Positions 1-63,497 of a stretch of DNA of 64,000 nt are shown in pieces. The notes under the pieces were generated by a model that saw only the letters and a program-made list of their open reading frames with translations, searched no databases and was not told the DNA's origin. The first letter of the stretch is position 1; each line of letters opens with the position of its first letter. Position numbers and translations under genes: made by a program. The DNA comes from Clostridia bacterium (GTDB lineage Bacteria; Bacillota; Clostridia; Oscillospirales; CAG-272). The DNA is taken from NCBI GenBank assembly GCA_017520505.1, contig JAFXFN010000024.1, positions 209 to 64,208 on the forward strand, written 5' to 3'.

Positions 1-59
1 GTGGCGCAACATCATATTTGCGAAGCAAATGCATCATATCGCCGCAGGCGATGCATCAT
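1..59. repeat. Word-hairpin array A, cut by the window edge. Word (A/G)CATCAT at 9, 31 and 53, separated by 15-nt hairpins
   Basis: The word recurs with a 22-nt period. The spacers are ATTTGC-GAA-GCAAAT (16-30) and ATCGCC-GCA-GGCGAT (38-52). Confidence 0.7.
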
Positions 60-63
60 TTAA

Positions 64-130
64 TTCCCCCTCGTGTATTGAAAAACACCGAAAACTGTGC
101 TATAATAAAATCAAAAAGGTGGTGAAATGC
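64..130 (+). promoter_or_regulatory. Conserved promoter/5'UTR module, copy A (-35 TTGAAA 78-83, 17-nt spacer, -10 TATAAT 101-106, GGTGGTG RBS)
   Basis: Near-identical to 1060-1126 and 4619-4684. It has a consensus sigma-A hexamer pair and ends at the ATG of the downstream ORF. Confidence 0.75.
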
Positions 131-796
131 ATGAGCCTAATAACAAAAGAAGAAGTATTTGCGATTATGGGCAAATATTATGGTAACGCCTATTGGAGAG
201 AAGCTGTCAGCAACGGATATTCTCAAGAGCAGTTGCTTTTTGTATCTGAAATTCTTGACGAAATTAATGCCTTGGGATATAATTTTAGTAACTTGCATCG
301 CCTGACAGACCACGAGGATATTCGCTTTATTCCCATCGTTCTTAAATATATCCATCAAAGAAAGTGGTGGGTTGGTTCGTTGCTGTCTGCATTTCATTGT
401 CGTACTTATTACGAATATACTCCTGAATTGATTGAATTATATAAAAGAGACGAATTTGATAAGTACAAATGGGATATCGGAAATGCACTTTTATTGTGTA
501 GACACAAAAAGTTTATTCCGCAATATCTTGAAGTAGTCAATGATCGATCGTACGGTAAGGAGCCCGACTTGATAATGGGAATTTTATGCCATTTTAAGGT
601 GAAGCAAGCCCTTCCTCGGTTATTAGAACTTTATGAGCGCTATCCCGATATTTGGCGATGGGATTTACTGAAATATGGTTGGTACTTTAAAGACAAGAAT
701 ATCATTCCATATATTGAACCCTATTTAACTTGTGATAATGGTGAGTATCGCAGTATGGCAAAAAAAGCTATGGGAAAGTTTTCTGATTCTCAATAA
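131..796 (+). CDS. Hypothetical soluble protein (222 aa), cassette gene 1
   Basis: ORF 29..796 trimmed to the ATG at 131, which lies 7 nt after the module RBS. AT-rich. I recognise no family. Confidence 0.55.
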   Translation: MSLITKEEVFAIMGKYYGNAYWREAVSNGYSQEQLLFVSEILDEINALGYNFSNLHRLTDHEDIRFIPIVLKYIHQRKWWVGSLLSAFHCRTYYEYTPELIELYKRDEFDKYKWDIGNALLLCRHKKFIPQYLEVVNDRSYGKEPDLIMGILCHFKVKQALPRLLELYERYPDIWRWDLLKYGWYFKDKNIIPYIEPYLTCDNGEYRSMAKKAMGKFSDSQ

Positions 797-856
797 ATTT
801 CACTGTTTACCAGTCAAAACATGATGGCATCCTTTTTGTCAATACGTCTCAAAAAG

Positions 857-888
857 AAAAGCACTTCGTAAGAAGTGCTTTTGTTTTT
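857..888 (+). terminator. Rho-independent terminator after cassette gene 1
   Basis: AAAAGCACTTC-GTAA-GAAGTGCTTTT stem-loop followed by a GTTTTT run. Confidence 0.7.
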
Positions 889-1053
889 GGAAATGAAGCG
901 CACCTGCGGTGCATGAAAAATGAAGCATGGCTTCGCCCTATGGAGCGTGGCTTCGCCACACGGAAAGGTAACCTCGCGCTTCGCTTCATGCGAGCATAGC
1001 GAGTGCTTCACGGCGCGTGCGCCGCTTCATATCGGCGTACGCCGATGCTTCAT
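889..1053. repeat. Word-hairpin array B (left arm ATGAAGC at 893 and 920; right arm GCTTCA[TC] at 983, 1005, 1024 and 1047)
   Basis: The two arms carry reverse-complementary 7-nt words. Spacers include GGCGC-GT-GCGCC (1012-1023) and ATCGGCG-TA-CGCCGAT (1031-1046). Confidence 0.7.
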
Positions 1054-1059
1054 TCAAAA

Positions 1060-1126
1060 TTCCCCCCTCGTGTATTGAAAAACACCGAAAACTGTGCTAT
1101 AATAAGATCAGAAAGGCGGGTGGAAT
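1060..1126 (+). promoter_or_regulatory. Conserved promoter/5'UTR module, copy B (-35 1075-1080, -10 1098-1103)
   Basis: Same block as 64-130. TTGAAA-N17-TATAAT, ending at the ATG at 1127. Confidence 0.75.
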
Positions 1127-1573
1127 ATGAAAAAAATAATACTTTTCGTTTTACTTTTAGCATTATTTATGCTTTCCTCCTGTGCCAAAATCGAAGAACC
1201 AAAGGCGCAAGAAGTCGCAAATCAGCTTTTTGAATACATCGAAAAAGGTGACTACTCCTCCGCATCTGCGTTGTTTTGTGCGAAAGAGGATGGCGGAAAA
1301 TCATTCTCTGAATTTTTGGATGAAATCGAAATTGAAACGGGACTTGATTTTCAATCCAATATTGAAATTTTAGAATATTCAGAATATCACTCCGCGCCGA
1401 ATAGCTATTTTGGAGTAGTTTGCGCTGACTTTAATGTAAAAGCAATTGTTGACGGAGAAGAAATAACGATGTATGTTGGCGTTCTTGAAAACGAAGATGC
1501 AATTGAATGTTGCCAACTTGTTATATATGCCGAAAATAATGATTATCAATTCCTTTGTGATTACATAGATTGA
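1127..1573 (+). CDS. Small lipoprotein (148 aa), cassette gene 2
   Basis: Signal peptide with a lipobox (LFMLSSC). Sits directly behind module copy B. Confidence 0.7.
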   Translation: MKKIILFVLLLALFMLSSCAKIEEPKAQEVANQLFEYIEKGDYSSASALFCAKEDGGKSFSEFLDEIEIETGLDFQSNIEILEYSEYHSAPNSYFGVVCADFNVKAIVDGEEITMYVGVLENEDAIECCQLVIYAENNDYQFLCDYID

Positions 1574-1706
1574 CGGCAAATTTTTTGTAAATGCGGCGTA
1601 AAATAAAAATCCGTTCTCATTGAGCAAGGCTGATAATGACAGTTATCTGTAAAAGAACCGGAATTTGCCGTACAAATTCCCTGCTTGTTATATATAAGAC
1701 AAAAAC

Positions 1707-1826
1707 TGCCGAAGGCAATAGCGCCTGTCGTAAGACAAATATCACTGATCAGCAGTATCTGCTGAATGCAATAGAACTCGCCGCAGGCGAATAAAACCGG
1801 CCAAGTGTACTTTAGAACACTTGGCC
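1707..1826. repeat. Degenerate hairpin array E, ending in CGCC-GCA-GGCG + AATAAAAC + a long hairpin (1799-1826)
   Basis: Hairpins TGCC-GAA-GGCA (1707-1717), TGTC-GTAA-GACA (1726-1737) and TCAGCAG-TAT-CTGCTGA (1749-1765). Word ATATCACT at 1739. The terminus is the same as array D at 30.6 kb. Confidence 0.55.
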
Positions 1827-2011
1827 GAGAGGGCGGATTTTCAAATGAATAATTAATCGCTTTTCGCTGAGGTGGAAAGCTTTTTTGCTGTAGGACGGTG
1901 TCTTGATGCCGCCGCTTTTATTGAATTCAGGATTCTTTTCTATTATAGTCTTTCTATTATAATACTTTTTTGATTTTGTAAATAGTTTTTATCAGTTTTA
2001 ACAAAATTGAC

Positions 2012-2737
2012 TTATTTCTGTGAAGCACGCTTTTCAAGCTCTAAAATTGCGCTCTCATACGCACGTTTTTGAAGCTCTAATGCAATTTCGTTTTTGGGCT
2101 TATCTCCGCTGATCTCAAAAAGCTTTGCCGCCACGTACTCAAGCACGTGTGGATTTCTGACTAAGATCGGACCTATAAGCGTGGTGGCGATAAAGTTTTT
2201 ATAAACAAATCCCTCGTTTTTGGAGTCTTTACCGTGTCCCGCACCGAAAACTACCTTAAAAAGAGGATTTTCGGTATCGTAAAACTCGGAGCATCTATTG
2301 ACAAAGCCAAGCGTCTTTTTCTCAAAAAGCTCGCTTTCAAAGAGACAATCTGACAAAATTCTGCGTTTTTTGTCTCGGTGTGCAGAATATCCTAAAATTC
2401 CAATCGCCTGCGTTTTATCACACTCGGTTTCAATGAATTTTCCGAAAAGCTCGACAGCTGAGCCCGTCGCAAGCAGCATTTTGCCATCCTCAACGAAAGC
2501 TTTGAGCTCGTCTTTTTTGGGCATAAGCAGATCGAGCGCACGGTCGAGCGAGTTTTCCGTACCGCTACCGAGATATATCATGTGATATTTTGAGAGGTCA
2601 GCGGAAAAAATATCGTCGGTTTTGTCGATTTGTATCTTAACTCCGCATTGTTTTACGTATTTTTCAACGGCGGATACGTTACCGTGGTCGCCGTAAAGGT
2701 TTAAAAGGTCCGGGTATAAAAACAAGACGTTTATCAT
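2012..2737 (-). CDS. gatD: Lipid II isoglutaminyl synthase, glutamine amidotransferase subunit GatD (CobB/CobQ-like GATase)
   Basis: 241 aa. The N-terminus MINVLFLYPDLLNLYGDHGN is typical of GatD. Lies downstream of murT. Confidence 0.85.
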   Translation of the reverse strand: MINVLFLYPDLLNLYGDHGNVSAVEKYVKQCGVKIQIDKTDDIFSADLSKYHMIYLGSGTENSLDRALDLLMPKKDELKAFVEDGKMLLATGSAVELFGKFIETECDKTQAIGILGYSAHRDKKRRILSDCLFESELFEKKTLGFVNRCSEFYDTENPLFKVVFGAGHGKDSKNEGFVYKNFIATTLIGPILVRNPHVLEYVAAKLFEISGDKPKNEIALELQKRAYESAILELEKRASQK

Positions 2738-2895
2738 GTTGTTGCCTTTCTGTTATTGGGGTAATTATCTTCACGGGAGGATTTTCTTCCCTGTAAGGTT
2801 GAGTGAGCCAAATATGGTTTATATCATAGGGACAAGCTTTCCCCGACGGTACGTAATTGCTTACACGTTCTGATTTGCGTTAATCGTTCAAATCA

Positions 2896-4233
2896 TCACT
2901 TCTTAGGCAAAATACACATCACCTTATCACGATCCGAAAAGCAGGTGATGAGGAAAAGCTCGGTATTTTCGTTTGTCGGGGCGCTAACGAAAATTTCAGT
3001 TGCCTTTTTGATATCGGGCTCGACGCTGATTTTTTTCTTGGGGATTTCCGTATAATCGAATCTGACGGCAAGATCGTGCGCATATTTACCCGAAAGGACG
3101 ATCTTTTCGCATCCCGATGCAAGTAAGTCGAAATTAATATCAAAAAGCCAGCTTGTTTCGCAGGTGTAGTACTTTCTGCTGATGGAATCGACCACGAACA
3201 TTACGACAAATGGATTCTTACATCTTACGGCGTAATCAATAGACTGATTATAGGAAATGGAGTTTTCGTGCTTTGAGGTCAGGAGCGTGAAATTGCATCC
3301 ATTCACCTTACGAGTTTTGACACGTCCGTTTTTCATGACGTAACCGCCGAGAAGTTCAGCTGTTTTTGATCTGTCGTAGCCAAGATGTGTGAGCAAGGTA
3401 TATGCGGCGAGCAGATTATAGACGTTATATGTGCTGCCAAAGGCAAGGTCGATCTTATACTCACCGTCGAAAACGATATTGAGCTTATCAAGATTGACAG
3501 AGGTTACCCTGCAAAGCGCATCCTCTGTGCGAAGAGCGCAGTTTTTGCACTCGAATTTGCCGATATGAGCCATATTATAGTATTCATACTCAAGCGGATG
3601 CTTACAAATGGGACAATAAGCGCCGTCGTTATACTTGCCGATCGGCTTTTTAGTGGAGTACTTATTTTCGTCCATAGAGAAATAAACCACGTTTTCAGGT
3701 GCCACGACTTTTGAAAATCTGCTGACGAGCGGGTCGTTTGCGTTGAGAATGAGGGATGTTTTGGTGTCGATGGAGTCAAGAAGTATGTTATAGATCCACT
3801 CACTATGCGCATTTCGGGTCATCTGGTCACGGTAGAGGTTGGTGATGACGTAGTGCGTGGGGGTGAAATGGCGCATCGTGAGGCGTGCATAACGCTCGTC
3901 GCTCTCAAGAAGCACGGCATCTGCCTTGACGACGCCCTTTAAGGTACAGTTACAGAGCAAAAATGTCGCAACGCCCTCCGTTTGATTGGATCCTTCCTTG
4001 TTATATATGACGTTTACGCCATGTCCTCTGAGTGCGTGCGCAATCATTTCAACGGTTGAGGTCTTTCCGTTGCTGCCCGATACCGCAATGATGGTTTTGG
4101 GCATTTTGAGCTTTGAGAGGATATTTGGAAAGAGCTTGAGAGCTATCTTTCCTGGCATACTTGAGCCCTTGCCGACAAGCTTGCCGACACGATAAAGACA
4201 TTTGCAGAGTATTACTGCGATCATTGTTTTCAT
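2896..4233 (-). CDS. murT: Lipid II isoglutaminyl synthase, Mur-ligase-type subunit MurT
   Basis: Mur ligase P-loop GSNGKTST and a Cys4 ribbon (CPICKH...CKNC). 445 aa. Paired with gatD. Confidence 0.85.
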   Translation of the reverse strand: MKTMIAVILCKCLYRVGKLVGKGSSMPGKIALKLFPNILSKLKMPKTIIAVSGSNGKTSTVEMIAHALRGHGVNVIYNKEGSNQTEGVATFLLCNCTLKGVVKADAVLLESDERYARLTMRHFTPTHYVITNLYRDQMTRNAHSEWIYNILLDSIDTKTSLILNANDPLVSRFSKVVAPENVVYFSMDENKYSTKKPIGKYNDGAYCPICKHPLEYEYYNMAHIGKFECKNCALRTEDALCRVTSVNLDKLNIVFDGEYKIDLAFGSTYNVYNLLAAYTLLTHLGYDRSKTAELLGGYVMKNGRVKTRKVNGCNFTLLTSKHENSISYNQSIDYAVRCKNPFVVMFVVDSISRKYYTCETSWLFDINFDLLASGCEKIVLSGKYAHDLAVRFDYTEIPKKKISVEPDIKKATEIFVSAPTNENTELFLITCFSDRDKVMCILPKK

Positions 4234-4403
4234 GATGTGTTCCTTGTTTTTTTATGTTATTTTGAGTTTGTTTTTGGCGTGTTTAAGGAGGAAATCAGCC
4301 CACGTCAAGTCTGGCAAGACGTTTTATTTTACGAACCGCCCTTCGCAATTTTACATACACAATTATTTTACTACTTCTTTTCTTTTTTGTCAACACACTT
4401 TTG

Positions 4404-4440
4404 AAAAAATAGAGCAAGTCAAAGACTTGCTCTATTTTTT
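4404..4440. terminator. Bidirectional terminator/insulator hairpin
   Basis: AAAAAATAGAGCAAGTC-AAA-GACTTGCTCTATTTTTT, a perfect 17-bp stem flanked by A and T runs. Confidence 0.7.
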
Positions 4441-4443
4441 CAA

Positions 4444-4611
4444 CTAAATCCGCCTTCGCCGGAATAAATCCACTATCGTGGATGAAATCGCTACGCGATG
4501 AAATCTTGCTTCGCAAGGTTAAGGGAGGCGGATTTAATTTCATCTGAAGCCGCAGGCTGAAGATTTCATCCGAACGGAGTGAGGATTTCATCGCGCCTTG
4601 CGCGATTTCAT
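4444..4611. repeat. Word-hairpin array C (left arm ATGAAAT at 4482 and 4498; right arm ATTTCAT at 4537, 4563, 4585 and 4605)
   Basis: The arms carry reverse-complementary words. Spacers include CTTGC-TTC-GCAAG (4505-4517) and CGCGC-CTT-GCGCG (4592-4604). Confidence 0.7.
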
Positions 4612-4618
4612 TAAAACC

Positions 4619-4684
4619 TTCCCCCTCGTGTATTGAAAAACACCGAAAACTGTGCTATAATAGAATCAGAAAGGTGGTGGAAAT
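4619..4684 (+). promoter_or_regulatory. Conserved promoter/5'UTR module, copy C (-35 4633-4638, -10 4656-4661)
   Basis: Same block as 64-130 and 1060-1126, ending at the ATG at 4685. Confidence 0.75.
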
Positions 4685-5206
4685 ATGAATAATATTCTCT
4701 ATGAATTACATTTTAATTGGTCGAGTTGCCTGATATTATTTATTCCTTTGCTTGTCGGTCTGGGATTTTTCTTCTGCTTTAAATGGTATCCTGCTCAAAA
4801 CCCGGGAGTGAACATAAAGGGAGCTCACGGATACGTAGGATATATTTTCTTTAAATGGCTAGGTTGGATTGTGGGCGTCTTTTGTTTCCTCCTTTTTGTG
4901 TCCATATTAGTTGCTCATATTGGTGATTATTCGGAAAAGAAAAACGCGATAAATAATGATCAAGTATTGGTGGTAGAGGGCTATGTGGAAAAGTATCATG
5001 CTATGCCGTTTGAAGGACACGACACCGAATACTTTGAAATCAATGGCGTGTATTTTGAATATTCAAATTTTGAATTGTACAACGGCTATAATCGTCCTGC
5101 TTGTTATGGTGGTGTTGTTACTGAAAACGGGCAATACTTAAAAATAAAGTATGTTACTGATATTACAGGTAAGAATATAATTTTATATATTGAGCGAATT
5201 GAATAA
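4685..5206 (+). CDS. Membrane protein (173 aa), cassette gene 3
   Basis: Two N-terminal hydrophobic helices followed by a soluble C-terminal domain. Sits directly behind module copy C. Confidence 0.65.
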   Translation: MNNILYELHFNWSSCLILFIPLLVGLGFFFCFKWYPAQNPGVNIKGAHGYVGYIFFKWLGWIVGVFCFLLFVSILVAHIGDYSEKKNAINNDQVLVVEGYVEKYHAMPFEGHDTEYFEINGVYFEYSNFELYNGYNRPACYGGVVTENGQYLKIKYVTDITGKNIILYIERIE

Positions 5207-5220
5207 GGCATCTTTTTTTC

Positions 5221-5300
5221 AACGAAATTCGCCTACGGTGAGTGAAATTTGGCTTCGCCATATGAAATAGCTTCGCTGTGAAATGTTCGCTTTGCGAACG
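5221..5300. repeat. Half word-hairpin array F (word TGAAAT x4 with short hairpin spacers)
   Basis: GAAAT/TGAAAT at ~5224, 5243, 5262 and 5279. Spacers include GGC-TTC-GCC and GTTCGC-TTT-GCGAAC. Confidence 0.55.
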
Positions 5301-5301
5301 T

Positions 5302-5327
5302 GGGCAAATATTATGGTAATGCCTATT
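5302..5327 (+). pseudogene. Remnant of a cassette-gene-1 paralogue (26 nt, 25/26 identical to 169-194)
   Basis: GGGCAAATATTATGGTAA[T/C]GCCTATT matches codons ~13-22 of the ORF at 131..796. Weaker similarity continues for ~10 nt on each side. Confidence 0.6.
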
Positions 5328-5391
5328 AAGAAAAAGCGCTTTGTAAGAGGTGTCTGTGATAGAGCAAAATTTATAGAAATTAAAAAATAAA

Positions 5392-5462
5392 GCGGGAGGT
5401 GATAGCCTCCCCTACAACGATATTCAATTTTTACAATGTAGGGGAGGATATTATCCTCCCGC
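5392..5462. repeat. Convergent pair of REP-like hairpins (hairpin-CCCCTACA ... TGTAGGGG-hairpin)
   Basis: GGGAGG-TGATAG-CCTCCC+CTACA at 5394-5416 and TGTAG+GGGAGGATATTATCCTCCC at 5437-5460. Confidence 0.7.
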
Positions 5463-5515
5463 AACTCGATAGCTTGCCTTTTGATAAACATTTTTCTTTA
5501 TTTGCTAAAAAAATA

Positions 5516-5544
5516 TTGACAAACGATAAAATACGTGGTATGAT
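5516..5544 (+). promoter_or_regulatory. Sigma-A promoter (TTGACA-N17-TGgTATGAT)
   Basis: -35 at 5516-5521, -10 at 5539-5544, with an extended -10 TG. Confidence 0.6.
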
Positions 5545-5567
5545 AGAGCTTGAAAGGCGGTGGGGAT

Positions 5568-6032
5568 ATGAAAAAGAAGAAAATCATAATAACCTCAATT
5601 TTTTTGGTGCTGATCGCTGTTACCTCGTTTGTTTTTCTGACAAGTGCGATAGAATCCTACAATTACGATATGGACCCTGCAAACGGTGTGGATATTTTGG
5701 AGGGTGTCGGAGCAGGCATACTTATAATGATCGGTAGCTTTGTCGTTTTCTATGAATTAGATTTGTTTTATACCGTTTACTACTTTTTTATAAGGCCGAA
5801 AACCGTTTTAAAATCGATAATTGTTGTTCTTTCTCATCTTATGCTGATTCTTATGTTTTTCAGTGAAAAAATAGAAGATTTTGTTAAAATCCATTTTCAT
5901 AAAATCGTTGAGGGGCCTTATGAAGACGCTGTGATTCTCATCGGGATGTTCTCTATATACTTCATTTTGAAAATAGCTATTTTTATAATCGGTTTGCGTG
6001 AGAAAATAAGAAAGGATATTTCAGATCTATAA
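5568..6032 (+). CDS. Membrane protein (154 aa)
   Basis: ORF trimmed to the ATG at 5568 behind a GGCGGTGGGG RBS. About 4 hydrophobic helices. Confidence 0.65.
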   Translation: MKKKKIIITSIFLVLIAVTSFVFLTSAIESYNYDMDPANGVDILEGVGAGILIMIGSFVVFYELDLFYTVYYFFIRPKTVLKSIIVVLSHLMLILMFFSEKIEDFVKIHFHKIVEGPYEDAVILIGMFSIYFILKIAIFIIGLREKIRKDISDL

Positions 6033-6156
6033 ATATAAATCATCATCTGATGTGGTTATGAAGATAAAATGACGCAAAACGAAGCGGCGGAAACAAGCAC
6101 CGCCCTGCGGTTGACAGGTGATTTTGTTTGTGATATACTGAAAGTGATATTAGAAA

Positions 6157-6495
6157 ATGAAGAAAAATATGAAAAGAAATGTCATTGTGATTTTGTTCAC
6201 TGCTGTCTATGCGGTGATTTTAGGCTTGGGACTTTGTTGTTTTTTAGATGTGATGTTAGCTAAGATGTTCGGAGGGATCAATAGGTATCCGAGATTTATT
6301 CCGTTTGGTATCATTGTGGGATATGCGGCGTTGGGTGCTTTGATAGCTGTTTTTGTTGCAAATCTGAAATTGTCAAAGAAAATCAATTTCACCAAATGGA
6401 CTTGGGTGATACAAACGGTATGTGCTGTGATATTATCCGTTCCGATGTTTCGGTTGTGGTTGTTGTTATTTAATTTTTTGCACAAAACGTTTTGA
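6157..6495 (+). CDS. Small membrane protein (112 aa)
   Basis: 3-4 TM helices. The start is uncertain (ATG at 6157 or 6169). Confidence 0.5.
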   Translation: MKKNMKRNVIVILFTAVYAVILGLGLCCFLDVMLAKMFGGINRYPRFIPFGIIVGYAALGALIAVFVANLKLSKKINFTKWTWVIQTVCAVILSVPMFRLWLLLFNFLHKTF

Positions 6496-6551
6496 TGTGA
6501 TCGTTTAACGGCGTGCACGTGTGCGGTAAAAAAGGCGGTGAGGTGTTTGAA

Positions 6552-7802
6552 ATGAGCAAATTGGATTGGTTTAAAGAGGCGAAATACGGATTGTTTATCC
6601 ACTTTGGCATTTATGCCTTGCCCGGCGGTGAATGGCACGGTGTGCCTTCCCCGCACGGCAGTGAATGGATAATGAAGAATATGAAAATACCGTATTCTGA
6701 ATACAAGGAGCTTGCAAAAAAGTTCGATCCCAAAAGCTTCGACCCGTATTACTACGTCAGAAACGCCAAAAAGTGGGGAATGAAATACCTGACCTTTACC
6801 GCAAAGCATCACGACGGCTTTGCAATGTACGACACCAAGGTTTCCGATTATAACGTAATGAATACCCCTTACGGCAAGGACATCGTAAAACAGCTTGCCG
6901 ATGCGTGCGCTGAGGAGGGGCTGACGTTTTGCATCTACTATTCCCAGATGCAGGACTGGGAGCATCCCGACGGCGAGGGGAACAACTGGGATTTTGACCC
7001 CGAAAAGAAAGATTTCAAGCGTTATTTTTACGATAAGTGCATTCCGCAGGTCAAGGAGCTTCTTACAAACTACGGCAAGGTTGGTATGATGTGGTTTGAC
7101 ACCCCCTACGATATGCCCGAAGAGCTTTGCCGTGAGCTTGCCGAGGTCGTGCGTGCGTGCCAGCCCGACTGTCTTATCAACAGCCGAATCGGCTACGGCT
7201 ACGGTGATTTCCGTGAGGTTGCGGACAATACCATTCCCGTGCTTTCACGACGTGATGTGTGGGAGTCGCCAATGACGATGAACAGCTCGTGGGGGTATAT
7301 CAAGCGTGATAAAACCTCGAAGTCGTCCGCCGACGTTCTTCAGAATCTCGTGCGTATTGTCGGCAAGGGCGGAAATCTTCTCTTGAATCTCGGCCCCGAT
7401 GAAAACGGTCTTCCCCCGAAGGTCTGCACAGATGCGCTCGACAGTGCGGGAAAGTGGCTGGAGAAATACGGCGACAGCATTTTCGGCACAACGAATATCC
7501 CGAATTTTCCTTACCTTTTGCCGTGGGGCGATCTTACGTACAGTGCGATCCGCAAAACTCTTTATTTCCACGTGAAGAATTACCCTGCCTTTCCGCACCG
7601 TGTGCTTTTGACGGGACTTCAAACGAAGGTGCGGAGTGTTACGCTTATGTATGACGGCTCAAAGCTTAAATATTCACAGTCCTATGAGCCCGGACGTGAC
7701 GAGCACAGACTTTACGTTTTTTTGCCCGAGGTCTGCCCCGACCCCGATGACACCGTTGTTGCCGTTGAGCTTGAGGGCGAGGCGACAGCGCAGACTATAT
7801 AA
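6552..7802 (+). CDS. Alpha-L-fucosidase (GH29)
   Basis: KYGLFIHFGIYALPG and KHHDGFAMYDT motifs. About 416 aa. Start taken at the ATG at 6552. Confidence 0.8.
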   Translation: MSKLDWFKEAKYGLFIHFGIYALPGGEWHGVPSPHGSEWIMKNMKIPYSEYKELAKKFDPKSFDPYYYVRNAKKWGMKYLTFTAKHHDGFAMYDTKVSDYNVMNTPYGKDIVKQLADACAEEGLTFCIYYSQMQDWEHPDGEGNNWDFDPEKKDFKRYFYDKCIPQVKELLTNYGKVGMMWFDTPYDMPEELCRELAEVVRACQPDCLINSRIGYGYGDFREVADNTIPVLSRRDVWESPMTMNSSWGYIKRDKTSKSSADVLQNLVRIVGKGGNLLLNLGPDENGLPPKVCTDALDSAGKWLEKYGDSIFGTTNIPNFPYLLPWGDLTYSAIRKTLYFHVKNYPAFPHRVLLTGLQTKVRSVTLMYDGSKLKYSQSYEPGRDEHRLYVFLPEVCPDPDDTVVAVELEGEATAQTI

Positions 7803-18042: not shown

Positions 18043-18063
18043 TTGTATGAATTATGCGGGCGT

Positions 18064-18129
18064 GTAGTTCGCTGTACAGCGAACTACTTTGCTCGTTCGT
18101 ATGAAATGAACAAAAAACATATTTCCGCT
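18064..18129. repeat. REP-like hairpins: GTAGTTCG-CTGTACAG-CGAACTAC (18064-18087) and CATATTTCC-GCTA-GGAAATATG (18108-18129)
   Basis: Perfect stems. Both families recur elsewhere in the window. Confidence 0.7.
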
Positions 18130-18424
18130 AGGAAATATGCGCCATACGCCCGCAAGGCAATTTGCTTCGCAAATTGTGGGGGGTGCGGGCATGGCGCCGT
18201 TGTCACATACCTATGAAATGAAGAAAAATGGGTTTGAAGCGGCGGGAGTAGTCTCGCTGTGGCTCGGTCACGTTCGGGTTCTGACATACCACCGGTATGT
18301 CATTCATTACCCTCACGCCGCTTCGCTACCCCCGCCCTACAACACAGTCCTTGAATAAAACGAGCGGAAATGGGACAAAACGAACGAATGTTTGTTTTAA
18401 GTTCGAGAAATTCCAAAATCTGTA

Positions 18425-18799: not shown

Positions 18800-19135
18800 A
18801 TGTTGAAGATTAACAACGGAAAAAGATTTTTACAGTCAATAGAAAAATATACCTGTGTCTGCAATTCCGACGACAGACTTCCCAATCTTGCGGGGTATCT
18901 CCGCTTTATGGGAATGACCGACGAGGAATACGCAAAGCTTTGCGAGAAGTTCCCGAAGCAGGCACAGCTTGCCATGTCGGTCTTTGAGGACGAGGCACTT
19001 AATTCGGGAACGAAAAAAATATCGGCATCCGTGCTCAATCTCTATCTGAAAAGCCGTTTCGGCTACGGCGGAGATGACAAGCACGATGACGACGGAATTT
19101 TAAGCGTTGTGTGCGAGCACAGCGACGGCGAATGA
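18800..19135 (+). CDS. Putative terminase small subunit
   Basis: 111 aa. Its stop overlaps the TerL start (ATGA). The call rests on position and size. Confidence 0.5.
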   Translation: MLKINNGKRFLQSIEKYTCVCNSDDRLPNLAGYLRFMGMTDEEYAKLCEKFPKQAQLAMSVFEDEALNSGTKKISASVLNLYLKSRFGYGGDDKHDDDGILSVVCEHSDGE

Positions 19136-20448
19136 AAAAGCTTTACTTGAAGGGCACGCCGAACAAAAAGCAGGAGCTGTTTTTCTCATCAAAAGCCAAG
19201 TTCACCGCCTACGGCGGTGCAAGGGGCGGCGGCAAAAGCTGGGCGCTTCGGCGCAAGCTCGTGCTTTTGTGTCTTCGCTACGCAGGGATAAAATGTCTTA
19301 TAATCAGACGAAGCTTTCCTGAGCTTCAGTATAACCACATACTGCCGCTTCGTGCGGAGCTTGGTGAGTGCGTGAAGTATTCAGAATCGGGGAAATGCTT
19401 TAAATTTCCCAACGGCTCTGTTTTGAAGCTCGGATATATGTCCGATGACGGTGACACACTTCAGTATCAGGGGCAGGAATACGACATAATCGCCCTTGAC
19501 GAGGCAACACAGCTGACCGAATACCGATTTTCAGCTTTAAAAGCGTGTCTTCGAGGCACGAACGGTTATCCGAAAAGAATGTATCTTTCGTGTAACCCCG
19601 GCGGTGTCGGTCACGCCTGGGTGAAGCGTTTGTTCATCGACAGAATATACCACGACGGGGAAAACCCCGATGATTACGCCTTTATTCAGGCGACGGCTTA
19701 TGACAATACCGTGCTGATGGAAAAGGACGGCGAATATATAAACACTCTGAAATCACTTCCGAAGGAGCTTCGTGCCGCCTGGCTTGACGGCAGGTGGGAC
19801 CTTTTTGAAGGACAGTTCTTCTCTGAAATTTCAGAGGATATCCACGTCATTCCGCCGTTTGAGCTTCCGTACGGTGTGCGCCGTATCGGCGGACTTGACT
19901 ACGGCTTCGATATGCTTGCGTTTGTCTGTCTTGCCATTGACGAGGACGGACGTGTTTACGTTGAGCGTGAGTACAGCGAGCCGAATTTGACCTTGTCATC
20001 TGCGGCACATAAAATAGCCGAGATGTGCCGAGGGCTTGATGTTGACTATATTTCCGCATCGCCCGATTTATGGAACAGACGGCAGGACAGCGGACTTTCG
20101 GGCTTTGAGATAATGGCAAACGTTCACGGTATGCCGCCGCTTATAAAGGCGGATAACAGGCGTGTTCCCGGTTGGCGTGCGCTTCGTGAATATCTCAAGG
20201 CTGACGGCGGTGAGCCGAAAATGAAATTTTTTAAGACGTGCTTTGACACGTTCCGATGTCTTTCATCTCTTACGTACGATAAGACGAAAGCAGAGGATGC
20301 CTCGGACACTCCGCACGAGATAACGCATCTGCCCGAGGCGCTTCGGTATGCGGTGATGTCGAGAATACAGCGTGCAGACACCGCCGAGGAAATGTACAAT
20401 ATGAGAAAAAGACGATATGAAAACAGAAATAATTTGGCAAATTACTGA
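19132..20448 (+). CDS. Phage terminase large subunit
   Basis: Walker A YGGARGGGKSW, Walker B-like DIIALDEAT, and a C-terminal nuclease-like half. Confidence 0.85.
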   Translation: MKKLYLKGTPNKKQELFFSSKAKFTAYGGARGGGKSWALRRKLVLLCLRYAGIKCLIIRRSFPELQYNHILPLRAELGECVKYSESGKCFKFPNGSVLKLGYMSDDGDTLQYQGQEYDIIALDEATQLTEYRFSALKACLRGTNGYPKRMYLSCNPGGVGHAWVKRLFIDRIYHDGENPDDYAFIQATAYDNTVLMEKDGEYINTLKSLPKELRAAWLDGRWDLFEGQFFSEISEDIHVIPPFELPYGVRRIGGLDYGFDMLAFVCLAIDEDGRVYVEREYSEPNLTLSSAAHKIAEMCRGLDVDYISASPDLWNRRQDSGLSGFEIMANVHGMPPLIKADNRRVPGWRALREYLKADGGEPKMKFFKTCFDTFRCLSSLTYDKTKAEDASDTPHEITHLPEALRYAVMSRIQRADTAEEMYNMRKRRYENRNNLANY

Positions 20449-20462
20449 CTTTTAGGAGGTAT

Positions 20463-22037
20463 ATGGAAAATAAAACAAAGGCTTGGGAGCAATACGAGGC
20501 CGGTGTTGAATACAAAAGGCGCATAGGTCTTTACACAACTGTGCGTGAAAACGAGCGCTTTTACAGAGGCGAGCAATGGGAGGGCGTGAACGCAAACGGT
20601 CTGCCAACTCCCGTGTTCAACATCATTAAGCGTATTGTTTCGTATATGATAAGCACCGCCACCTCACAGCCGATAAGTGTGAGCTACAGCGACGATTCGC
20701 TGAGCGTTATCGGCAGTGAACGGCTGAAAAAGCAGATCTCCGACGGTATCGAGCTGCTCAACAAAAACGTGTCGTACAGGCTTGACAAGGACAAGATAGA
20801 GTCGCTTGTCAGGGGTGCTATGCTCGATGCGGCTGTGTCGGGCGACGGGGTGTTTTACACCTTCTGGGATTCCGACATAAAGACGGGGCAGATATATACG
20901 GGTGACATAAGAACGGTTTTGTGCGACAATACGGATTTATTTGTTGCCAACGTGAACAGCCGTGACATTCAAAGGCAGGATTACGTGATGCTCAAGGGGC
21001 GTGACACGGTCGAGCATCTGAAAAAGGAAGCCCTCGAAAACGGTGTTTCGCCCAAGGATGCTGAGAAGATAGTTCCCGACGATACGGAGGGCATAGGTGC
21101 AGGTGAGCTTTTCGACATTGAGAGCGAAAACGATGAATATGCTACGTTTCTGCTCAAATTCAGCCGTGATGAAAACGGATACGTCGTGTGGGAGAAAGCC
21201 ACACAGTCCACCGTTATCAAAACGTGTCAAACGAAGATGAGAAGATACCCGATAGCGTACTTTTCGTGGGAGAACGCAAAGGGCTCATTTATCGGAAATT
21301 CACCCGTTACGGCTCTTATTCCCAATCAGAAATACATCAACAAGGCTTACGCCATGGTGATGAAGCATATGACGGACACCGCATTTTCAAAGGTCATTTA
21401 TGACAAGACTCTCATTCCCGAATGGACGAATGAGGTCGGTGAGGCGGTCGGTGTCAAGGGCGGTGACGTCAGAGGTGCGGCTGTTGCCCTCGGTGCGGGT
21501 AACATGCAAAGCGGATTTCTTGACGTTATCAATCTGACGATGATGCACACGAAGGAGCTGATGGGGGCGACCGATGCCGCACTCGGTGAGGTCGATCCCG
21601 ACAACACCTCGGCTATCCTTGCGCTTCAGGAATCGTCAAACGTTCCGCTTGAAAACATAAGACAGAATCTTTACGCTTGTATTGAGGACCTTGCCCTCAA
21701 CTGGGCGGAGATGATGTTTGAATATTATCCCGAGGGCAGATTCCTGCCCTATGACGATAACGGAGAGAGCAAAAGCGGCAAGATGCCCGACTACGAGCTT
21801 TTTAAAAATTCCGTTATCCGTGCCCGTGTTGACGTGGGGGCGGGCACGAAATACTCGCAGATAGTTGCGGTTAATACGCTTGACAAGCTTTTGTCGGGCG
21901 GATTTATCGGAATTGAGGATTATCTTGAAAGACTGCCCGACGGCATAATTTCCGACAAGCGTGAGCTTATTGAAAAAGCCGTGCTTCGTCAGAAGAGTTC
22001 CGAGCAGACGGAAACGGAGGCAATCGATGGACAATGA
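20463..22037 (+). CDS. Phage portal protein
   Basis: 524 aa, immediately after TerL. Acidic C-terminus. The call rests on position, size and general resemblance. Confidence 0.65.
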   Translation: MENKTKAWEQYEAGVEYKRRIGLYTTVRENERFYRGEQWEGVNANGLPTPVFNIIKRIVSYMISTATSQPISVSYSDDSLSVIGSERLKKQISDGIELLNKNVSYRLDKDKIESLVRGAMLDAAVSGDGVFYTFWDSDIKTGQIYTGDIRTVLCDNTDLFVANVNSRDIQRQDYVMLKGRDTVEHLKKEALENGVSPKDAEKIVPDDTEGIGAGELFDIESENDEYATFLLKFSRDENGYVVWEKATQSTVIKTCQTKMRRYPIAYFSWENAKGSFIGNSPVTALIPNQKYINKAYAMVMKHMTDTAFSKVIYDKTLIPEWTNEVGEAVGVKGGDVRGAAVALGAGNMQSGFLDVINLTMMHTKELMGATDAALGEVDPDNTSAILALQESSNVPLENIRQNLYACIEDLALNWAEMMFEYYPEGRFLPYDDNGESKSGKMPDYELFKNSVIRARVDVGAGTKYSQIVAVNTLDKLLSGGFIGIEDYLERLPDGIISDKRELIEKAVLRQKSSEQTETEAIDGQ

Positions 22038-22356: not shown

Positions 22357-23011
22357 GCGGGGATGGGGTTCACCCTCTCCGTCGGTAGTTGGTTTACCAA
22401 CTACAACCACCATCCCCCAAAGGGGGAGGCATAACATCACATCGGATAAAATTGGCGGAAATGGGTTTGAAAATGAAATGCCTGTGGTATGAAATGTTAT
22501 CCGTTGTGCGGATAACATTGTAAACAATCCTCCCACCAAGCTTACGCTTGGTCCCCCCTCCTTTACACAAGGAGGGCTTGGGTGAACGGGGATGGGATTA
22601 AAACACCTCATCCACCGCAAGCAAGGTGTATCAGGGCGATACACCGGTAGTTGACCTTGTCAACTACAAGTCCCGTCCTTTTCCCGCTGGGGAAGGCAGA
22701 ACATTATAACCGTAGTATCTTGTTTCACATAAATTTTTACGGTGACGGCGCCATGCCCGCACCCCCCACGGCTCGCAGGCGTAACGGTAGTTCGCCCGAG
22801 CCGCCCTGCGGGCGAATGGCGCAGATTTCCTACGGAAATCTATTTGTAACATTTAAGAAGAAACAAGGCAGTAGAAAAATGAAAAAGGTAGAATATCACG
22901 CCGGGCTTGCGTTTTCGGGCGGTGTAGTTCGTGGTTCGCCACGAACTACATGAATCTACCCCTACAAATCACGTTGAATTTAAATAACATAAAAAGAAAG
23001 GAAAAATAAAT
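22357..23011. repeat. 655-bp block of REP-like hairpins inside the phage-like operon
   Basis: GTAG hairpins at 22385-22404, 22647-22667, 22788-22816 and 22924-22949. CCCCTACA at 22959-22966. 24-nt motif at 22449-22472. No credible ORF. Confidence 0.75.
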
Positions 23012-30330: not shown

Positions 30331-30460
30331 GGGCAAAGCCCATACCCCTTGTAGGGCGAGGGTTTACTCCCGCCATCTTATTGACCTAAATTTTATGTTA
30401 CGGCGGGAGCAAGCCCCCGCCCTACGATATCCCATTATATCACAAATCGGCAGAGAAAAC
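30331..30460. mobile_element. Miniature derivative of the RAYT-type transposase unit (REP-L 30351-30374, REP-R 30402-30425, shared flank motifs)
   Basis: GTAGGGCGAGGGTTTACTCCCGCC ... GGCGGGAGCAAGCCCCCGCCCTAC. GGGCAAAGCCCATACCCC is the reverse complement of 52366-52383. CGGCAGAGAAAACA equals 52424-52437. Confidence 0.65.
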
Positions 30461-30463
30461 AAG

Positions 30464-30680
30464 AGTGATATTCCGACTTCGTCGGAGTAATATTATTGCT
30501 ACCGCAATAGTGATATTGAAGCCTTACGGCTTCAGTGGTATTTTATTCGCCTTCCAAAACTTGCGTAGCAAATATCACTCGGCATAAGCCGAATATCACT
30601 GCGAAGCAATATCACTCGCCAAAGGCGAATAAAACTGCCCAACTTTCTTATGGGAAGTTGGGCAATCCTCTGTCTTTTTT
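30464..30680. repeat. Word-hairpin array D (left arm GTGATAT at 30465 and 30510; right arm ATATCAC at 30572, 30593 and 30609) with a terminal hairpin at 30637-30663
   Basis: Spacers TCCGAC-TTC-GTCGGA, ATTGC-TACC-GCAAT, TGAAGCC-TTAC-GGCTTCA, CGGC-ATAA-GCCG and CGCC-AAA-GGCG. Ends in AATAAAAC + GCCCAACTT...AAGTTGGGC + a T-run. Confidence 0.7.
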
Positions 30681-49763: not shown

Positions 49764-49950
49764 ATTTTGACACCTTTAAAAATAATTATACTGTTATATT
49801 ATATATCACGTGTGCGTATTATTATAGCCTTATATCTTTAATAAAATTTTAACATTTACCGAAGTAAAGCGGTAAACACCTTGATATTTCAGACTTAACT
49901 TAAAATTTCGGAATGATGTGTTAAGATGTAATGCTTGAAATCCGTATTGA

Positions 49951-59965: not shown

Positions 59966-62173
59966 TTATATTTTACCCTTGAATTTCTTTATCTGCTGGC
60001 ACATTAAATCATAGTAGAACGTGCCGTATTCTACTGACGGCTCAAGGTCACGTGAACGCTCGGGATTCTTTTGCTCGCTTGACGTCCATTCGTTCCAAGT
60101 GGTGAAAATTATCATTTTTGCACCGAGATTATACGCACGCTGTACTTGCTTTTTCAGCGTTGTGCCGTTTGAACGAAGCTCGCTGCTCTCCTCACTTTCT
60201 CCTCTTGTCGCCGCAGAGCAGGTGACCGTTTCAACAACTCCGTCGAGCTGTGTGTAGGTTTGCGGTGAACGCTCCTCCCAGCTCCAGAATCTCTCCGAGC
60301 AGAGCTTTCTGTCGTAAAGTGACGGCTGTTGTCCGACGTATCCCGTCATCCAGCGGATCGTGAATCTGTCGTCAGTCCATTTTGGGTTTTCTCCGTACTG
60401 GTTCGGCGTCGCACCGTAGCAGATGAGAAGCGGCTTTCCCTCGTAATAATAGTACATATCGCCGTATTCTTCATTTTCAACGAATGAAGAATACACCTGG
60501 TCAGCCTTCTTCTGATGCTTTCCGTTGTCAACGTTCGACTGTCCTGCGTGGCCCGGACCTAAGAAAAGTGCTATCTTTGGTGCGTTGGGTACGGTTTTCC
60601 ATATCTCGAACATTTTGTACGTCGAATGTTCTATCATTCTGAAGTCCTCTGCCGTTTCGAGGGTGACCTCGGAGATAGTCGTATTGTTTGACCAATCGAC
60701 GAATACAAAATCAACGTCTGCGGCGGCAAGAAGCTCTGCGTGGTAACGCAAAACGTCCTCTTCCTGCGACTCATATTCGCCGATAATGGGCGTGCCCCAG
60801 GTGTTTTTCCACCACGTTTTGGTGTTTCTGTGCCACGTTGTGTATGAAATTCCGACTATTCTTTCTTCAAACGGTGCGCTTGCAAGCTTTCCTACACCCG
60901 TTTTACTGCATTCGACGTCATCATAATTGAATACGACCTCGTCGTACAGCTTGAAATTGTCTGCGGCGAGCGTTTTTTTATCACTCGGTATTTCCGAATT
61001 TGCAGGATATACCGTGCATATACCGCTTGCGCTGTCAAACGATGCCGTGTAACCGAGTATCTTCGCAAAGCTGTCAACGCACATATAAAGACCGCCGTCA
61101 ATGCTCTTGACTGACGTAAACGGCTTTTCCTCTCCGTTTACGCTCATAAAAGGTCTGCCTGATGTAACGGCGAGGGATGCGTTGCCTCTTTCCGCCTTGA
61201 CAACTTCACCGTCAAGAACGTACGTGAAGTCAAACATTTTAAAAAGCGTTACGGCATCTGCGTATATCTTTCCGTCAAGCATCTTCGTTTTTGCCGTGTG
61301 CATAAATGCCTGCTTATCCTTGAAGGAATATCCACGCTCCGTCATAAACGCATAAACCGTTTCATCGGGTGTGAATACTTCCTCCGACGTGTGCGAAAGG
61401 CTTATTGAGCCGATTATGGATTTGCAGCGGTCGGTTTCAACACGGAAATAGCCGTGAGTGCCTTCTTCAAATATTACGTTGTCAGTACCGCATTTTGCAA
61501 GCTCGCCACCGTTTGAGTCCTTCAGTGAAAGCCCCGATTCGGTAAGCTGTACCGTTGCTATGTGCGTTTCGTTTGCCGATACCTTTATTTCATTCGGTGT
61601 GCCGGAGAAGCTGACCTTTACACCGTCCTTGCAGTCAAACGGAAGAGAATTCGTCACCGTGCAGTCAAGACCGCCTTGAATATGCGCCTTTACCGTGTTT
61701 TTCGCAAACGAAAACCAAAGACCGCTTGACGTGTGGGTATGCTCCGCCAATCGGCACAGAATACCTGCTTTTACTGTTTCATCTCCGCGGCGGGAGTCGT
61801 TTGCGTAAAGATATGCCTCAGCGGTGTAGGGGAACGTGACTATCCTTTCGGAAAATCCGACGGCTCCTATCTCTCTGTCCGAGCCGACAAGCCCCTTTTT
61901 CTTATCTCTTGTAAAGCTTTCACCCGTCAGGCTGATATATTTGTTCGCCTTGCACGTACCGACGGTACATTCGGTGAAATCAAAGCTGTGTGTGAAGTTG
62001 TTTCGTGTCTGAAGCAGCAATTCCGTTATATCAAACGATATTTCCGCAGGATCTGCCGCACCTTCAGTTTCCGACAACGCACCCGTTTCCGTGCTGTTTT
62101 TCGTGCAAGATGCGGTGAAAAGCAGGGAAAGGAGCGTTGAAGATAAAATTATAAGAGTTAAAATTCTTTTCAT
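59966..62173 (-). CDS. Lipoprotein with an N-terminal ~400-aa region and a C-terminal GH-like TIM-barrel domain (paralogue of the upstream gene)
   Basis: Lipobox LFTASC. The C-terminal ~330 aa align with 62174..63193 (VDFVFVDWSNNT, FWSWEER, TWNEW, identical YYDLMCQQIKKFKGKI end). Confidence 0.6.
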   Translation of the reverse strand: MKRILTLIILSSTLLSLLFTASCTKNSTETGALSETEGAADPAEISFDITELLLQTRNNFTHSFDFTECTVGTCKANKYISLTGESFTRDKKKGLVGSDREIGAVGFSERIVTFPYTAEAYLYANDSRRGDETVKAGILCRLAEHTHTSSGLWFSFAKNTVKAHIQGGLDCTVTNSLPFDCKDGVKVSFSGTPNEIKVSANETHIATVQLTESGLSLKDSNGGELAKCGTDNVIFEEGTHGYFRVETDRCKSIIGSISLSHTSEEVFTPDETVYAFMTERGYSFKDKQAFMHTAKTKMLDGKIYADAVTLFKMFDFTYVLDGEVVKAERGNASLAVTSGRPFMSVNGEEKPFTSVKSIDGGLYMCVDSFAKILGYTASFDSASGICTVYPANSEIPSDKKTLAADNFKLYDEVVFNYDDVECSKTGVGKLASAPFEERIVGISYTTWHRNTKTWWKNTWGTPIIGEYESQEEDVLRYHAELLAAADVDFVFVDWSNNTTISEVTLETAEDFRMIEHSTYKMFEIWKTVPNAPKIALFLGPGHAGQSNVDNGKHQKKADQVYSSFVENEEYGDMYYYYEGKPLLICYGATPNQYGENPKWTDDRFTIRWMTGYVGQQPSLYDRKLCSERFWSWEERSPQTYTQLDGVVETVTCSAATRGESEESSELRSNGTTLKKQVQRAYNLGAKMIIFTTWNEWTSSEQKNPERSRDLEPSVEYGTFYYDLMCQQIKKFKGKI

Positions 62174-63193: not shown

Positions 63194-63250
63194 AGTTAAA
63201 AACCTCCGATAAAGTTTATTTGATTTTAACACACGCAATAAAAAAAGTCA

Positions 63251-63497
63251 AGTAGGGGGCGGCGCCCATGTAGTTCGAAGTAATTCGAACTACCGCAGTT
63301 TACAAAGTAAACTGCACGACCTGATTGTTGACGTCCTATAAATTCACAGGGTTTATTTTCATTTAATTCAACGGGTTACGTGCGCCTCCGCCTGCAACCC
63401 CCATGTAGTTTGCGACTCGTCGCAAACTACCGTAGTTGGCTCTGCCAACTACATGGCTCTGCCAACTACAAGGTGCACATATTTCCTGTGGAAATAT
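63251..63497. repeat. Cluster of GTAG hairpins upstream of spoIIAA
   Basis: GTAGGGGGCGGCGCCC (63251-63266), GTAGTTCGAAGTAATTCGAACTAC (63269-63292), GCAGTTTAC-AAA-GTAAACTGC (63294-63314), GTAGTTTGCGACTCGTCGCAAACTAC (63405-63430), GTAGTTGGCTCTGCCAACTAC (63432-63452) plus a partial duplicate, and ATATTTCC-TGT-GGAAATAT (63479-63497). Confidence 0.75.

Follow-up and report, generated by a model that had tools for sequence, protein, structure and literature searches.

A shared promoter module as the probable 5′ arm of accessory-gene cassettes in uncultured gut Clostridia

Within a 64,000-nt stretch of a Clostridia genome (assembly GCA_017520505.1, contig JAFXFN010000024.1; hereafter the window), three unrelated open reading frames (ORFs), ORF A, ORF B and ORF C, are each preceded by the same block of about 67 nt, here called the module. 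By comparison with related loci (given labels of the form L0xx), we find that the module is matched by a second conserved block behind the stop codons, and that the two blocks enclose a different small ORF in one genome after another. We consider it somewhat more probable than not that the module is the 5′ arm of insulated, self-expressing accessory or immunity cassettes, which would be exchanged by general recombination via their conserved arms.

Results

Three copies of one module precede unrelated ORFs

A 29-mer, TTGAAAAACACCGAAAACTGTGCTATAAT, occurs exactly at 78–106, 1075–1103 and 4633–4661, on the plus strand in all three cases; it is found nowhere else in the window with three or fewer mismatches, and it did not arise in 100 shuffled sequences. 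Alignment of 52–133, 1048–1129 and 4607–4687 gave an invariant core of 44 nt, CCCCCTCGTGTATTGAAAAACACCGAAAACTGTGCTATAATA, and a mean column identity of 90%, the few substitutions between the copies lying around the Shine–Dalgarno (SD) sequence. Across 66–84 nt, the copies within the genome are 89–95% identical. Thus, the initial annotation, which had reported a block of this size at these three sites, was right.

It had also read a sigma-A promoter and a ribosome-binding site in the block. In a promoter scan, every copy scored 11/12 as TTGAAA-17-TATAAT with a TG extension, and an SD is present in each; the leader of about 20 nt contains little besides the long SD, AGAAAGGYGGTG. A −10 box this near an SD occurs in the window only at the three module sites and at 49790 on the minus strand. 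The module leads up to the start codon of each ORF, as described, and its copies stop 5–8 nt short of the ATG. We predict from these signals that the module is an active promoter and, likewise, that the hairpins described below are active terminators.

BLASTP detected no similarity among the proteins of ORF A, ORF B and ORF C, and Pfam assigned none of the three to a family. The three ORFs are indeed AT-rich, as had been suspected: the G+C content of the cargo is 35–36%, compared with 43–45% for the core genes gatD and murT and 45% for the window. As to the protein types first assigned, the lipoprotein (ORF B) and the membrane protein (ORF C) stand, and the 222 aa given for ORF A were one too many.

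A conserved 3′ block completes the unit

Past the cargo stop codons lies a second conserved block, GGCATCTTTTTTGTCAACACG(Y)CTCAAAAA, also written GGCATCTTTTTTGTCAACACG..CAAAAA. It was found 0–12 nt past cargo stops at about 35 places in related loci, and next to it comes a terminator hairpin whose sequence varies. Given this 3′ block and the terminator behind the cargo, the unit comprises promoter and SD, ORF, 3′ block, terminator and array. By inspection, the cassette boundaries read ..AAGGCGGTG(N5-8)ATG and stop(N0-12)GGCATCTTTTTTGTCAAC. The 3′ block goes beyond what had been noted before, as does a diverged fourth cassette in which ORF D is the cargo (Table 1).

Terminators had been placed in front of the arrays that precede modules B and C. 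Both are there: the scan lists the first, and the second, in the linker upstream of module C (linker 3), has perfect 20-nt inverted arms at 4401–4420 and 4424–4443. Another terminator lies on the gatD side, at 1797–1828. A decayed fourth linker at about 1826–1947 was considered and rejected, as its alignment to L007 scores no better than shuffled sequences. We also rejected base pairing between the 3′ block and the SD in the mRNA, which, judged by eye, the variant blocks of the L033 lineage do not preserve.

Two arrangements of the arms were seen outside the window. In L001 (module-oriented 1321–1370), two 3′ blocks stand back to back and form a perfect palindrome, GGCATCTTTTTTGTCAACACGAGCCAACACGTGTTGACAAAAAAGATGCC, which indicates two convergent cassettes with one common junction. 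The sister lineage L033/L035 has its own versions of both arms, a 5′ arm CCGCTTTTATGCTATAATACACCYAAGGCGGTGATGATATG and a 3′ arm ..CAGTTCTTTTTCGGACACGAATGACAAAAA; the arms thus co-evolve by clade.

Table 1. Coordinates of cassette parts, arrays and enclosed genes in the window
Feature	Positions	Strand	Details
Array 1, right half	1–63	+	word GCATCAT; cut at the window edge
Module copy A	64–130	+	TTGAAA-17-TGcTATAAT, leader ~20 nt, SD AAAAAGGTGGTG
ORF A	131–796	+	221 aa, HEAT-like alpha solenoid
3′ block after ORF A	826–856	+	GGCATCCTTTTTGTCAATACGTCTCAAAAAG
Intrinsic terminator behind ORF A	857–888	+	scan lists 857–882; hairpin matches the hairpin after the tRNA operon of L024
Array 2	889–1058		both halves; ATGAAGC words left, GCTTCAT right, GC-rich mini-hairpins between
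Module copy B	1060–1126	+	exact 29-mer, promoter scan, alignment
ORF B	1127–1573	+	148-aa lipoprotein, lipobox
Degenerate 3′ block after ORF B	1575–1604	+	degenerate copy of the block
Weak Gut-1-like remnant	1713–1799	−	23.6 bits; beside the gatD-side terminator
gatD (2012–2737) and murT (2896–4233)	2012–4233	−	core genes inside the island, opposite orientation, not cargo
3′ block remnant without an ORF in front	4377–4410	+	TTTTTTGTCAACAC..GAAAAAA
Linker 3 terminator	4411–4440	+	AGAGCAAGTC-AAA-GACTTGCTCT, then T run
Array 3	4441–4618		two convergent Gut-1-like halves; covariance model
Array 3, left half	4461–4527	+	35.3 bits, below 50
Array 3, right half	4532–4613	−	27.7 bits, below 50
Module copy C	4619–4684	+	exact 29-mer, promoter scan, alignment
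ORF C	4685–5206	+	173 aa, two membrane helices and a small beta domain
3′ block after ORF C	5207–5223	+	GGCATCTTTTTTTCAAC; no terminator hairpin
Half array	5220–5289	+	Gut-1, 59.4 bits (gathering threshold 50)
ORF A-type fragment	5291–5327	+	89% identity to ORF A codons 10–22; 7-nt microhomology (TTTGCGA) to the half array
Promoter of the diverged fourth cassette	5516–5567	+	TTGACA-17-TGgTATGAT, shared SD GAAAGGCGGTGGGGAT, before ORF D
ORF D	5568–6032	+	154-aa membrane protein behind the diverged promoter
Gut-1 match away from the modules	30567–30637	−	58.4 bits (threshold 50)

The cassettes recur in related genomes with different cargo

The exact 24-mer core of the module occurs once each in 14 species-representative metagenome-assembled genomes besides the source, labelled Oscillospiraceae, Eubacteriales, Clostridia and, in one case, Candidatus Flemingiibacterium. 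A metagenome scan with the same core returned nine short contigs only. At each occurrence, a different ORF begins 20–28 nt past the core. A profile search with the module revealed diverged tandem copies as well, for example five successive cassettes in L012, and across the cassettes at least five −35/spacer variants are joined to one −10-to-SD core, TGCTATAATAAAnCnAGAAAGGCGGTG.

In at least nine genomes (L024, L012, L013, L011, L033/34, L035/36, L005, L014 and L046), the first cassette is preceded by a tRNA Val-Asp-Phe-Gly-Cys operon, and the cargo differs in each; in L024, the source contig, cassette A follows this operon and its terminator. Elsewhere, cassettes follow tRNA-Thr genes (L003) or have housekeeping genes on either side. 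Phage, plasmid and IMG/VR collections gave no match.

The cargo is equally diverse. Across the loci, 35 cassettes represent 27 unrelated protein families, and a lipobox or a membrane helix is present in 27 of the 35 (77%). Pfam gave essentially no match for the 31 cargo proteins searched. The initial annotation had named three outcomes that would count against gene cassettes: a module confined to its three sites, cargo proteins that are divergent paralogues, and orthologous loci of identical content. What we found was a module spread over many genomes, unrelated cargo families and a tRNA-operon site with changing content, so the gene-cassette reading holds.

Contigs with homologues of ORF A, ORF B or ORF C are mostly short (0.5–3 kb), which is consistent with shared arms breaking short-read assemblies; the true pool of cassettes is therefore probably much under-sampled.

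The homologues of ORF B, limited to the lineage, share 62–92% identity and sit in three unrelated contexts. Those at 81–87% identity stand in two unrelated contexts behind differing promoter variants; among the ORF B homologues as a whole, three such variants occur. The ORF C family has 85 homologues and lacks a Pfam domain, and a fold search of ORF C against the PDB returned weak OB-like matches only. The homologue of ORF D in L021 lies behind a canonical module. One cargo protein of L002 (module-oriented 140–560; 119 aa, MAESKLRELSMEFSVDIINLVKYLK...) may be akin to the four-helix-bundle or 23S rRNA intervening-sequence protein family.

ORF A is homologous to immunity genes of RHS toxins

A check of the three proteins by profile and structure singled out ORF A. 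Its structure model, of high confidence (pLDDT 94.7), is a HEAT-like solenoid that gave alphaRep matches in the fold search, and HEAT_2 is found in some of its 67 homologues. In L026, a homologue with 78% identity lies 14 nt behind the gene for a 2128-aa toxin; in L040/L041, one with 49% identity lies 9 nt behind that for a 1533-aa toxin. Both toxins share the architecture RHS/YD-shell, PT-HINT and Tox-REase-7. A further homologue follows an orphan toxin tip by 9 nt (L042), and in protein P0067 a PT-HINT fragment is fused to the ORF A C-terminus. The position typical of immunity genes, right behind a toxin gene, is thus seen for the homologues and not for ORF A of the window.

These toxin loci carry neither the module nor the 3′ block. 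Conversely, no RHS or PT-HINT match was found among the ten large ORFs of the window that were scanned, which argues that ORF A is an orphan here, an immunity gene brought under the standard arms. From homology, we predict that it protects against Tox-REase-7 RHS toxins. A "deaminase" beside the ORF A homologue of L028 was considered as a further toxin; its profile (dCMP_cyt_deam_1 and MafB19-deam, 186 aa) fits the housekeeping enzyme TadA, and we excluded it from the evidence.

The arrays between cassettes follow the Gut-1 pattern

The arrays of repeated words and hairpins belong to Gut-1 or are variants of it; Gut-1 is a noncoding RNA (ncRNA) candidate from human-gut reads that was published as exclusive to the human gut, without organism, context or function (Weinberg et al. 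2010, PMC2864571). The consensus of its Rfam model, RF01706, consists of UGAAAU words between three GC-rich hairpins, the same layout as that of the arrays. We assigned to Gut-1 whatever scored at least 50 bits, the gathering threshold, with the RF01706 covariance model. The half array behind ORF C and a match far from the modules pass this threshold; those immediately upstream of modules B and C score below it or go undetected. Array 2 is a Gut-1-like variant that the model does not detect, and the words ATGAAGC, ATGATG and GATGAAATC are among the variants it misses.

That the arrays before the modules are genuine hairpin arrays, as first claimed, is borne out by fold z-scores of −3.9 and −3.3. 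When array 3 was aligned across six genomes, 99.1% of the cells paired, with eight two-sided pair changes and no one-sided change, and slid controls were 30–39% paired. RNAalifold favoured long-range word-to-word pairing for this array, and the local hairpins were counted explicitly instead. The array of copy A, correctly described as clipped by the window edge, is entire in L024, where the terminator and the tRNA operon precede it.

While Gut-1 was described as a free-standing ncRNA, the arrays here form inverted pairs between terminator and promoter, and the motif occurs on both strands. Such occurrence fits DNA of the repetitive extragenic palindrome (REP) or bacterial interspersed mosaic element (BIME) kind, or a 3′-end element, at least as well as it would a small RNA (sRNA) gene. 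Since Gut-1-like arrays also lie in the window far from any module, the motif is not specific to the cassettes. Any role of the arrays, as of the 3′ block, would be putative.

The module-free arrays lie at 18050–18350, 22450–22950, 30450–30650 and 63250–63480, with the words GTAGTTCG.. and GTGATATT/AATATCAC; several of them flank a phage-like gene cluster. In L033 (6790–6990) and in the linkers of L013 and L011, hairpin-free word repeats take the place of hairpin arrays, CTTACC/CTTCAC to the left and GTAATAAG/GTGAAAAG to the right, each in runs, and the reverse-complement symmetry between left and right is retained.

Junctions and breakpoints are scattered

Gain, loss and rejoining of cassettes can be read from several pairs of loci. 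L033 and L035, two related haplotypes whose ORF C homologues are identical, differ by one 860-bp cassette, and the junction falls inside 47 nt of shared module. L004 and L013 have in common a zinc-ribbon lipoprotein cargo whose 3′ 200 nt, which begin mid-ORF and take in the 3′ block, are about 99% identical; its flanks are all unrelated. Linker 3 (4381–4692) is found at 85–88% identity in L004, L005, L011 and L007 with different genes on both sides, and L046 combines its terminator with a different array and promoter. In L002, a common hairpin joins two array types into a hybrid, and in L044 the ORF B cassette lies between direct repeats made up of the terminator and about 110 nt. Within the window, the join between the half array and the ORF A-type fragment (Table 1) is a recombination scar.

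Taken together, the breakpoints lie within modules, ORFs, arrays and terminator regions, a scatter that points to general (homologous and microhomology) recombination rather than single-site cutting. Next to the arrays of the window, L024 and L012, no recombinase was seen, and the genes that flank arrays encode tRNAs, a DUF5722 protein, MurT/GatD, a fucosidase and MatE. A repeat search had proposed a terminal inverted repeat of the 3′ block with the −35 region; it was not significant and was rejected, the block in reverse complement matching the module no better than shuffled sequences did (p ~0.31). The inverted repeats that we did find are internal to the array. By eye, no target-site duplication was seen. 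The initial annotation had offered gene cassettes or a promoter-carrying mobile unit: the former stands, and for a transposon-like unit we found no support, as neither terminal inverted repeats nor a linked recombinase were seen and the breakpoints are scattered.

L044 does contain an N-terminal integrase fragment (5642–6346), upstream of the ORF B cassette. The region 5320–7690 runs from an intact tRNA-Cys through the fragment and two small ORFs to a partial 3′ copy of tRNA-Cys (about 7620–7690) and looks like the attL/attR of a decayed integrative island. Lying between the tRNA and its partial copy, the integrase fragment belongs to that separate island. Contigs L047–L050, which come from other samples, are of the same strain as the window, with 99.96–100% identity and the same content, so turnover is visible only in the L033/L035 pair and between species.

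Discussion

How the cassettes might work

The host of the cassette family is an uncultured, Oscillospiraceae-like clade of gut Clostridia. Each cassette would be monocistronic; it has a TG-extended sigma-A promoter, a short SD leader, a small low-G+C ORF with only a few nucleotides left outside its start and stop codons, the 3′ block and a terminator, and an inverted pair of Gut-1-type arrays usually precedes the next promoter. The arms could confer strong, context-independent and insulated expression on any ORF captured between them. They could also serve as portable homology: recombination between tandem arms would delete a cassette, and incoming DNA recombining through the arms would add or replace one. 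The cargo is accessory and mostly associated with the envelope. Such cargo, together with the orphan immunity predicted for ORF A, suggests that the islands most likely store genes for immunity or envelope defence, with the site behind the tRNA Val-Asp-Phe-Gly-Cys operon as their chief anchor. We infer both the recombination pathway and a defensive role for cargo other than ORF A.

Several points weigh against exchange of defence cassettes by general recombination. We saw no ongoing shuffling, the same-strain contigs L047–L050 being unchanged. The arms, about 45–70 nt (5′) and about 30 nt (3′), are short for RecA-dependent exchange, and homologous recombination alone leaves the ORF-precise trimming of the cargo unexplained. 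The survey for a recombinase was incomplete, as its negative result covers the top 25 of the 60 Pfam families of 49 flanking proteins. Promoter and terminator function is read from consensus alone. Direct evidence from toxin loci exists for one of the 27 cargo families only (ORF A), and some cargo consists of enzymes (GH28, a 256-aa protein, RtcB followed by the 3′ block).

Other explanations for the arrangement

Integrons consist of a platform with intI and attI, attC sites with R″/L″/L′/R′ boxes and a GTTRRRY core, and promoterless cassettes expressed from Pc. An integron-like system, in which an unlinked site-specific recombinase acts on the Gut-1 arrays or conserved blocks as attC-like sites and on the tRNA-Cys flank as an attI-like platform, is one alternative. 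As in integrons and superintegrons, the cassettes are small, co-oriented, trimmed to their ORFs, low in G+C and, for the most part, without an assigned function; structured imperfect palindromes, their hairpins maintained by compensatory changes, lie between them; one tRNA-adjacent site is the preferred anchor in at least nine genomes; and the flanking duplication in L044 is of Campbell type. We nevertheless hold such a system to be rather doubtful. Here there is neither an intI gene nor attI, and GTTRRRY core sites are absent from the cassette boundaries (by inspection; no formal attC model was run). No recombinase stands beside the arrays or among the listed families of the flanking proteins, and the sole integrase fragment belongs to another island. 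A TTGAAA-17-TGnTATAAT promoter and a terminator, assigned by consensus only, come with each cassette. The breakpoints are not fixed, single cassettes occur at other loci, array sequence varies from cassette to cassette, some cassettes lack an array, and arrays also lie far from modules.

Mobility might instead reside in the linker: 3′ block, terminator, Gut-1 array and promoter could together be a miniature element of the Correia, REPIN or miniature inverted-repeat transposable element (MITE) type that inserts between genes. The linker of about 310 bp does stand between unrelated genes in several genomes at 85–88% identity, Gut-1-like arrays are dispersed in the window outside cassettes, and promoter-bearing repeats have a precedent (PMC3575422). 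Yet the element would have neither a terminal inverted repeat nor, by eye, a target-site duplication; its parts are mosaic, as L046 shows; phage, plasmid and IMG/VR collections do not contain it; and it is the cargo itself that is variable, low in G+C and found again with different linkers on each side. We consider such an element improbable. Equally little credence, in our judgement, is due to an account without mobility, under which the module is the operator-promoter of a regulon (with, for instance, GTGT-N8-ACAC over the −35 box) and the cargo changes by ordinary gene gain and loss. An inverted repeat does flank the −35 box, and 27 copies, drawn from many species, do not vary in the 17-nt spacer, which exceeds what a sigma factor needs, although these copies were chosen by exact match. 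An operator could coexist with cassettes. By itself, however, it leaves no place for the conserved 3′ block, and it is at odds with the other −35/spacer variants on the same −10-to-SD core, with the indel junction within the module (L033/L035) and with near-identical cargo between unrelated flanks in two species (L004/L013).

A bolder possibility, which we put forward only tentatively, is an unrecognised cassette-exchange system of Gram-positive gut anaerobes in which each ORF, once captured, would be set between standard expression arms and the Gut-1 arrays would be folded-DNA elements for recombination or insulation, served by an unlinked enzyme. If so, this would be a functional counterpart of integrons, and the Gut-1 arrays would not be sRNA genes.

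Relation to known systems

Functionally, the closest known system is rAID-1 of the Bacteroidales, arrays of orphan immunity genes with skewed G+C and repetitive intergenic sequences, headed by a XerD-family recombinase (Ross et al., bioRxiv 10.1101/471110). Both systems are arrays of small genes of gut bacteria, with skewed base composition and repetitive sequence between them, and ORF A would be an orphan immunity gene in ours. They differ in host (Clostridia here), in that no recombinase was seen at the cassette arrays, in that each cassette here has a promoter, SD and terminator, and in that one cargo family is tied to a toxin here, the other 26 being without evidence from toxin loci. With no linked recombinase and with cassettes that are not promoterless, our islands fall outside both rAID-1 and the integron as these are defined.

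Phage morons are autonomous units of promoter, ORF and terminator. Like morons, the cassettes carry both signals themselves and differ from their neighbours in base composition; unlike morons, they are chromosomal and tandem, have homologous arms, lie outside prophage and have no match in phage collections. The module also agrees with the operational definition of putative mobile promoters, at least 80% identity over at least 50 nt before non-paralogous genes, found across taxa and with no known mobilisation mechanism (Nijveen, Matus-Garcia and van Passel 2012, PMC3575422), and its cargo is unrelated. By contrast with these, it belongs to a cassette that has two arms and a terminator, and its conserved stretch extends from −70 to −6 relative to the ATG, compared with −150 to −50 in that survey (PMC3575422). 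Strings of type VII secretion system (T7SS) immunity paralogues in Firmicutes are reported to evolve by homologous recombination (PMC9484751). Tandem immunity genes would thus be gained and lost by homologous recombination in Gram-positive bacteria in both cases; the homology lies in the paralogous genes themselves in the strings and in non-coding arms of unrelated genes here. In limited full-text literature searches, we found no published description of the cassette arrangement.

Should the cassettes be what we propose, stores of orphan immunity and accessory genes would extend from Bacteroidales and Proteobacteria to abundant uncultured gut Clostridia, in an architecture that differs, with expression signals for each gene and no linked recombinase. 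The Gut-1 motif gains an organism and a fixed genomic context, so its function becomes testable. The cassettes would also be a natural case of standardised promoter–ribosome-binding site, ORF and terminator parts, and the conserved arms could be used as probes for the accessory gene pool in metagenomes.

Other features of the window

The phage-like cluster mentioned above extends from 19111 to about 30 kb and includes genes for a large terminase (19111–20448) and a P22-like portal protein (20463–22037). It may be a prophage or a region resembling a gene transfer agent; no link between it and the cassettes was found.

Further repeats were also recorded. A repeat of about 35–40 nt, ..AAAATGGGTTTGAA[AG]CGG.., is intergenic at 16777, 18213, 22433, 33062, 33106 and 35038. 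An 84-nt direct repeat with 85% identity occupies 59966–60049 and 62174–62257, its copies beginning, on the plus strand, at the low-coordinate (3′) ends of adjacent minus-strand ORFs of 735 aa and 354 aa, which suggests tandem paralogues or a common C-terminal segment.

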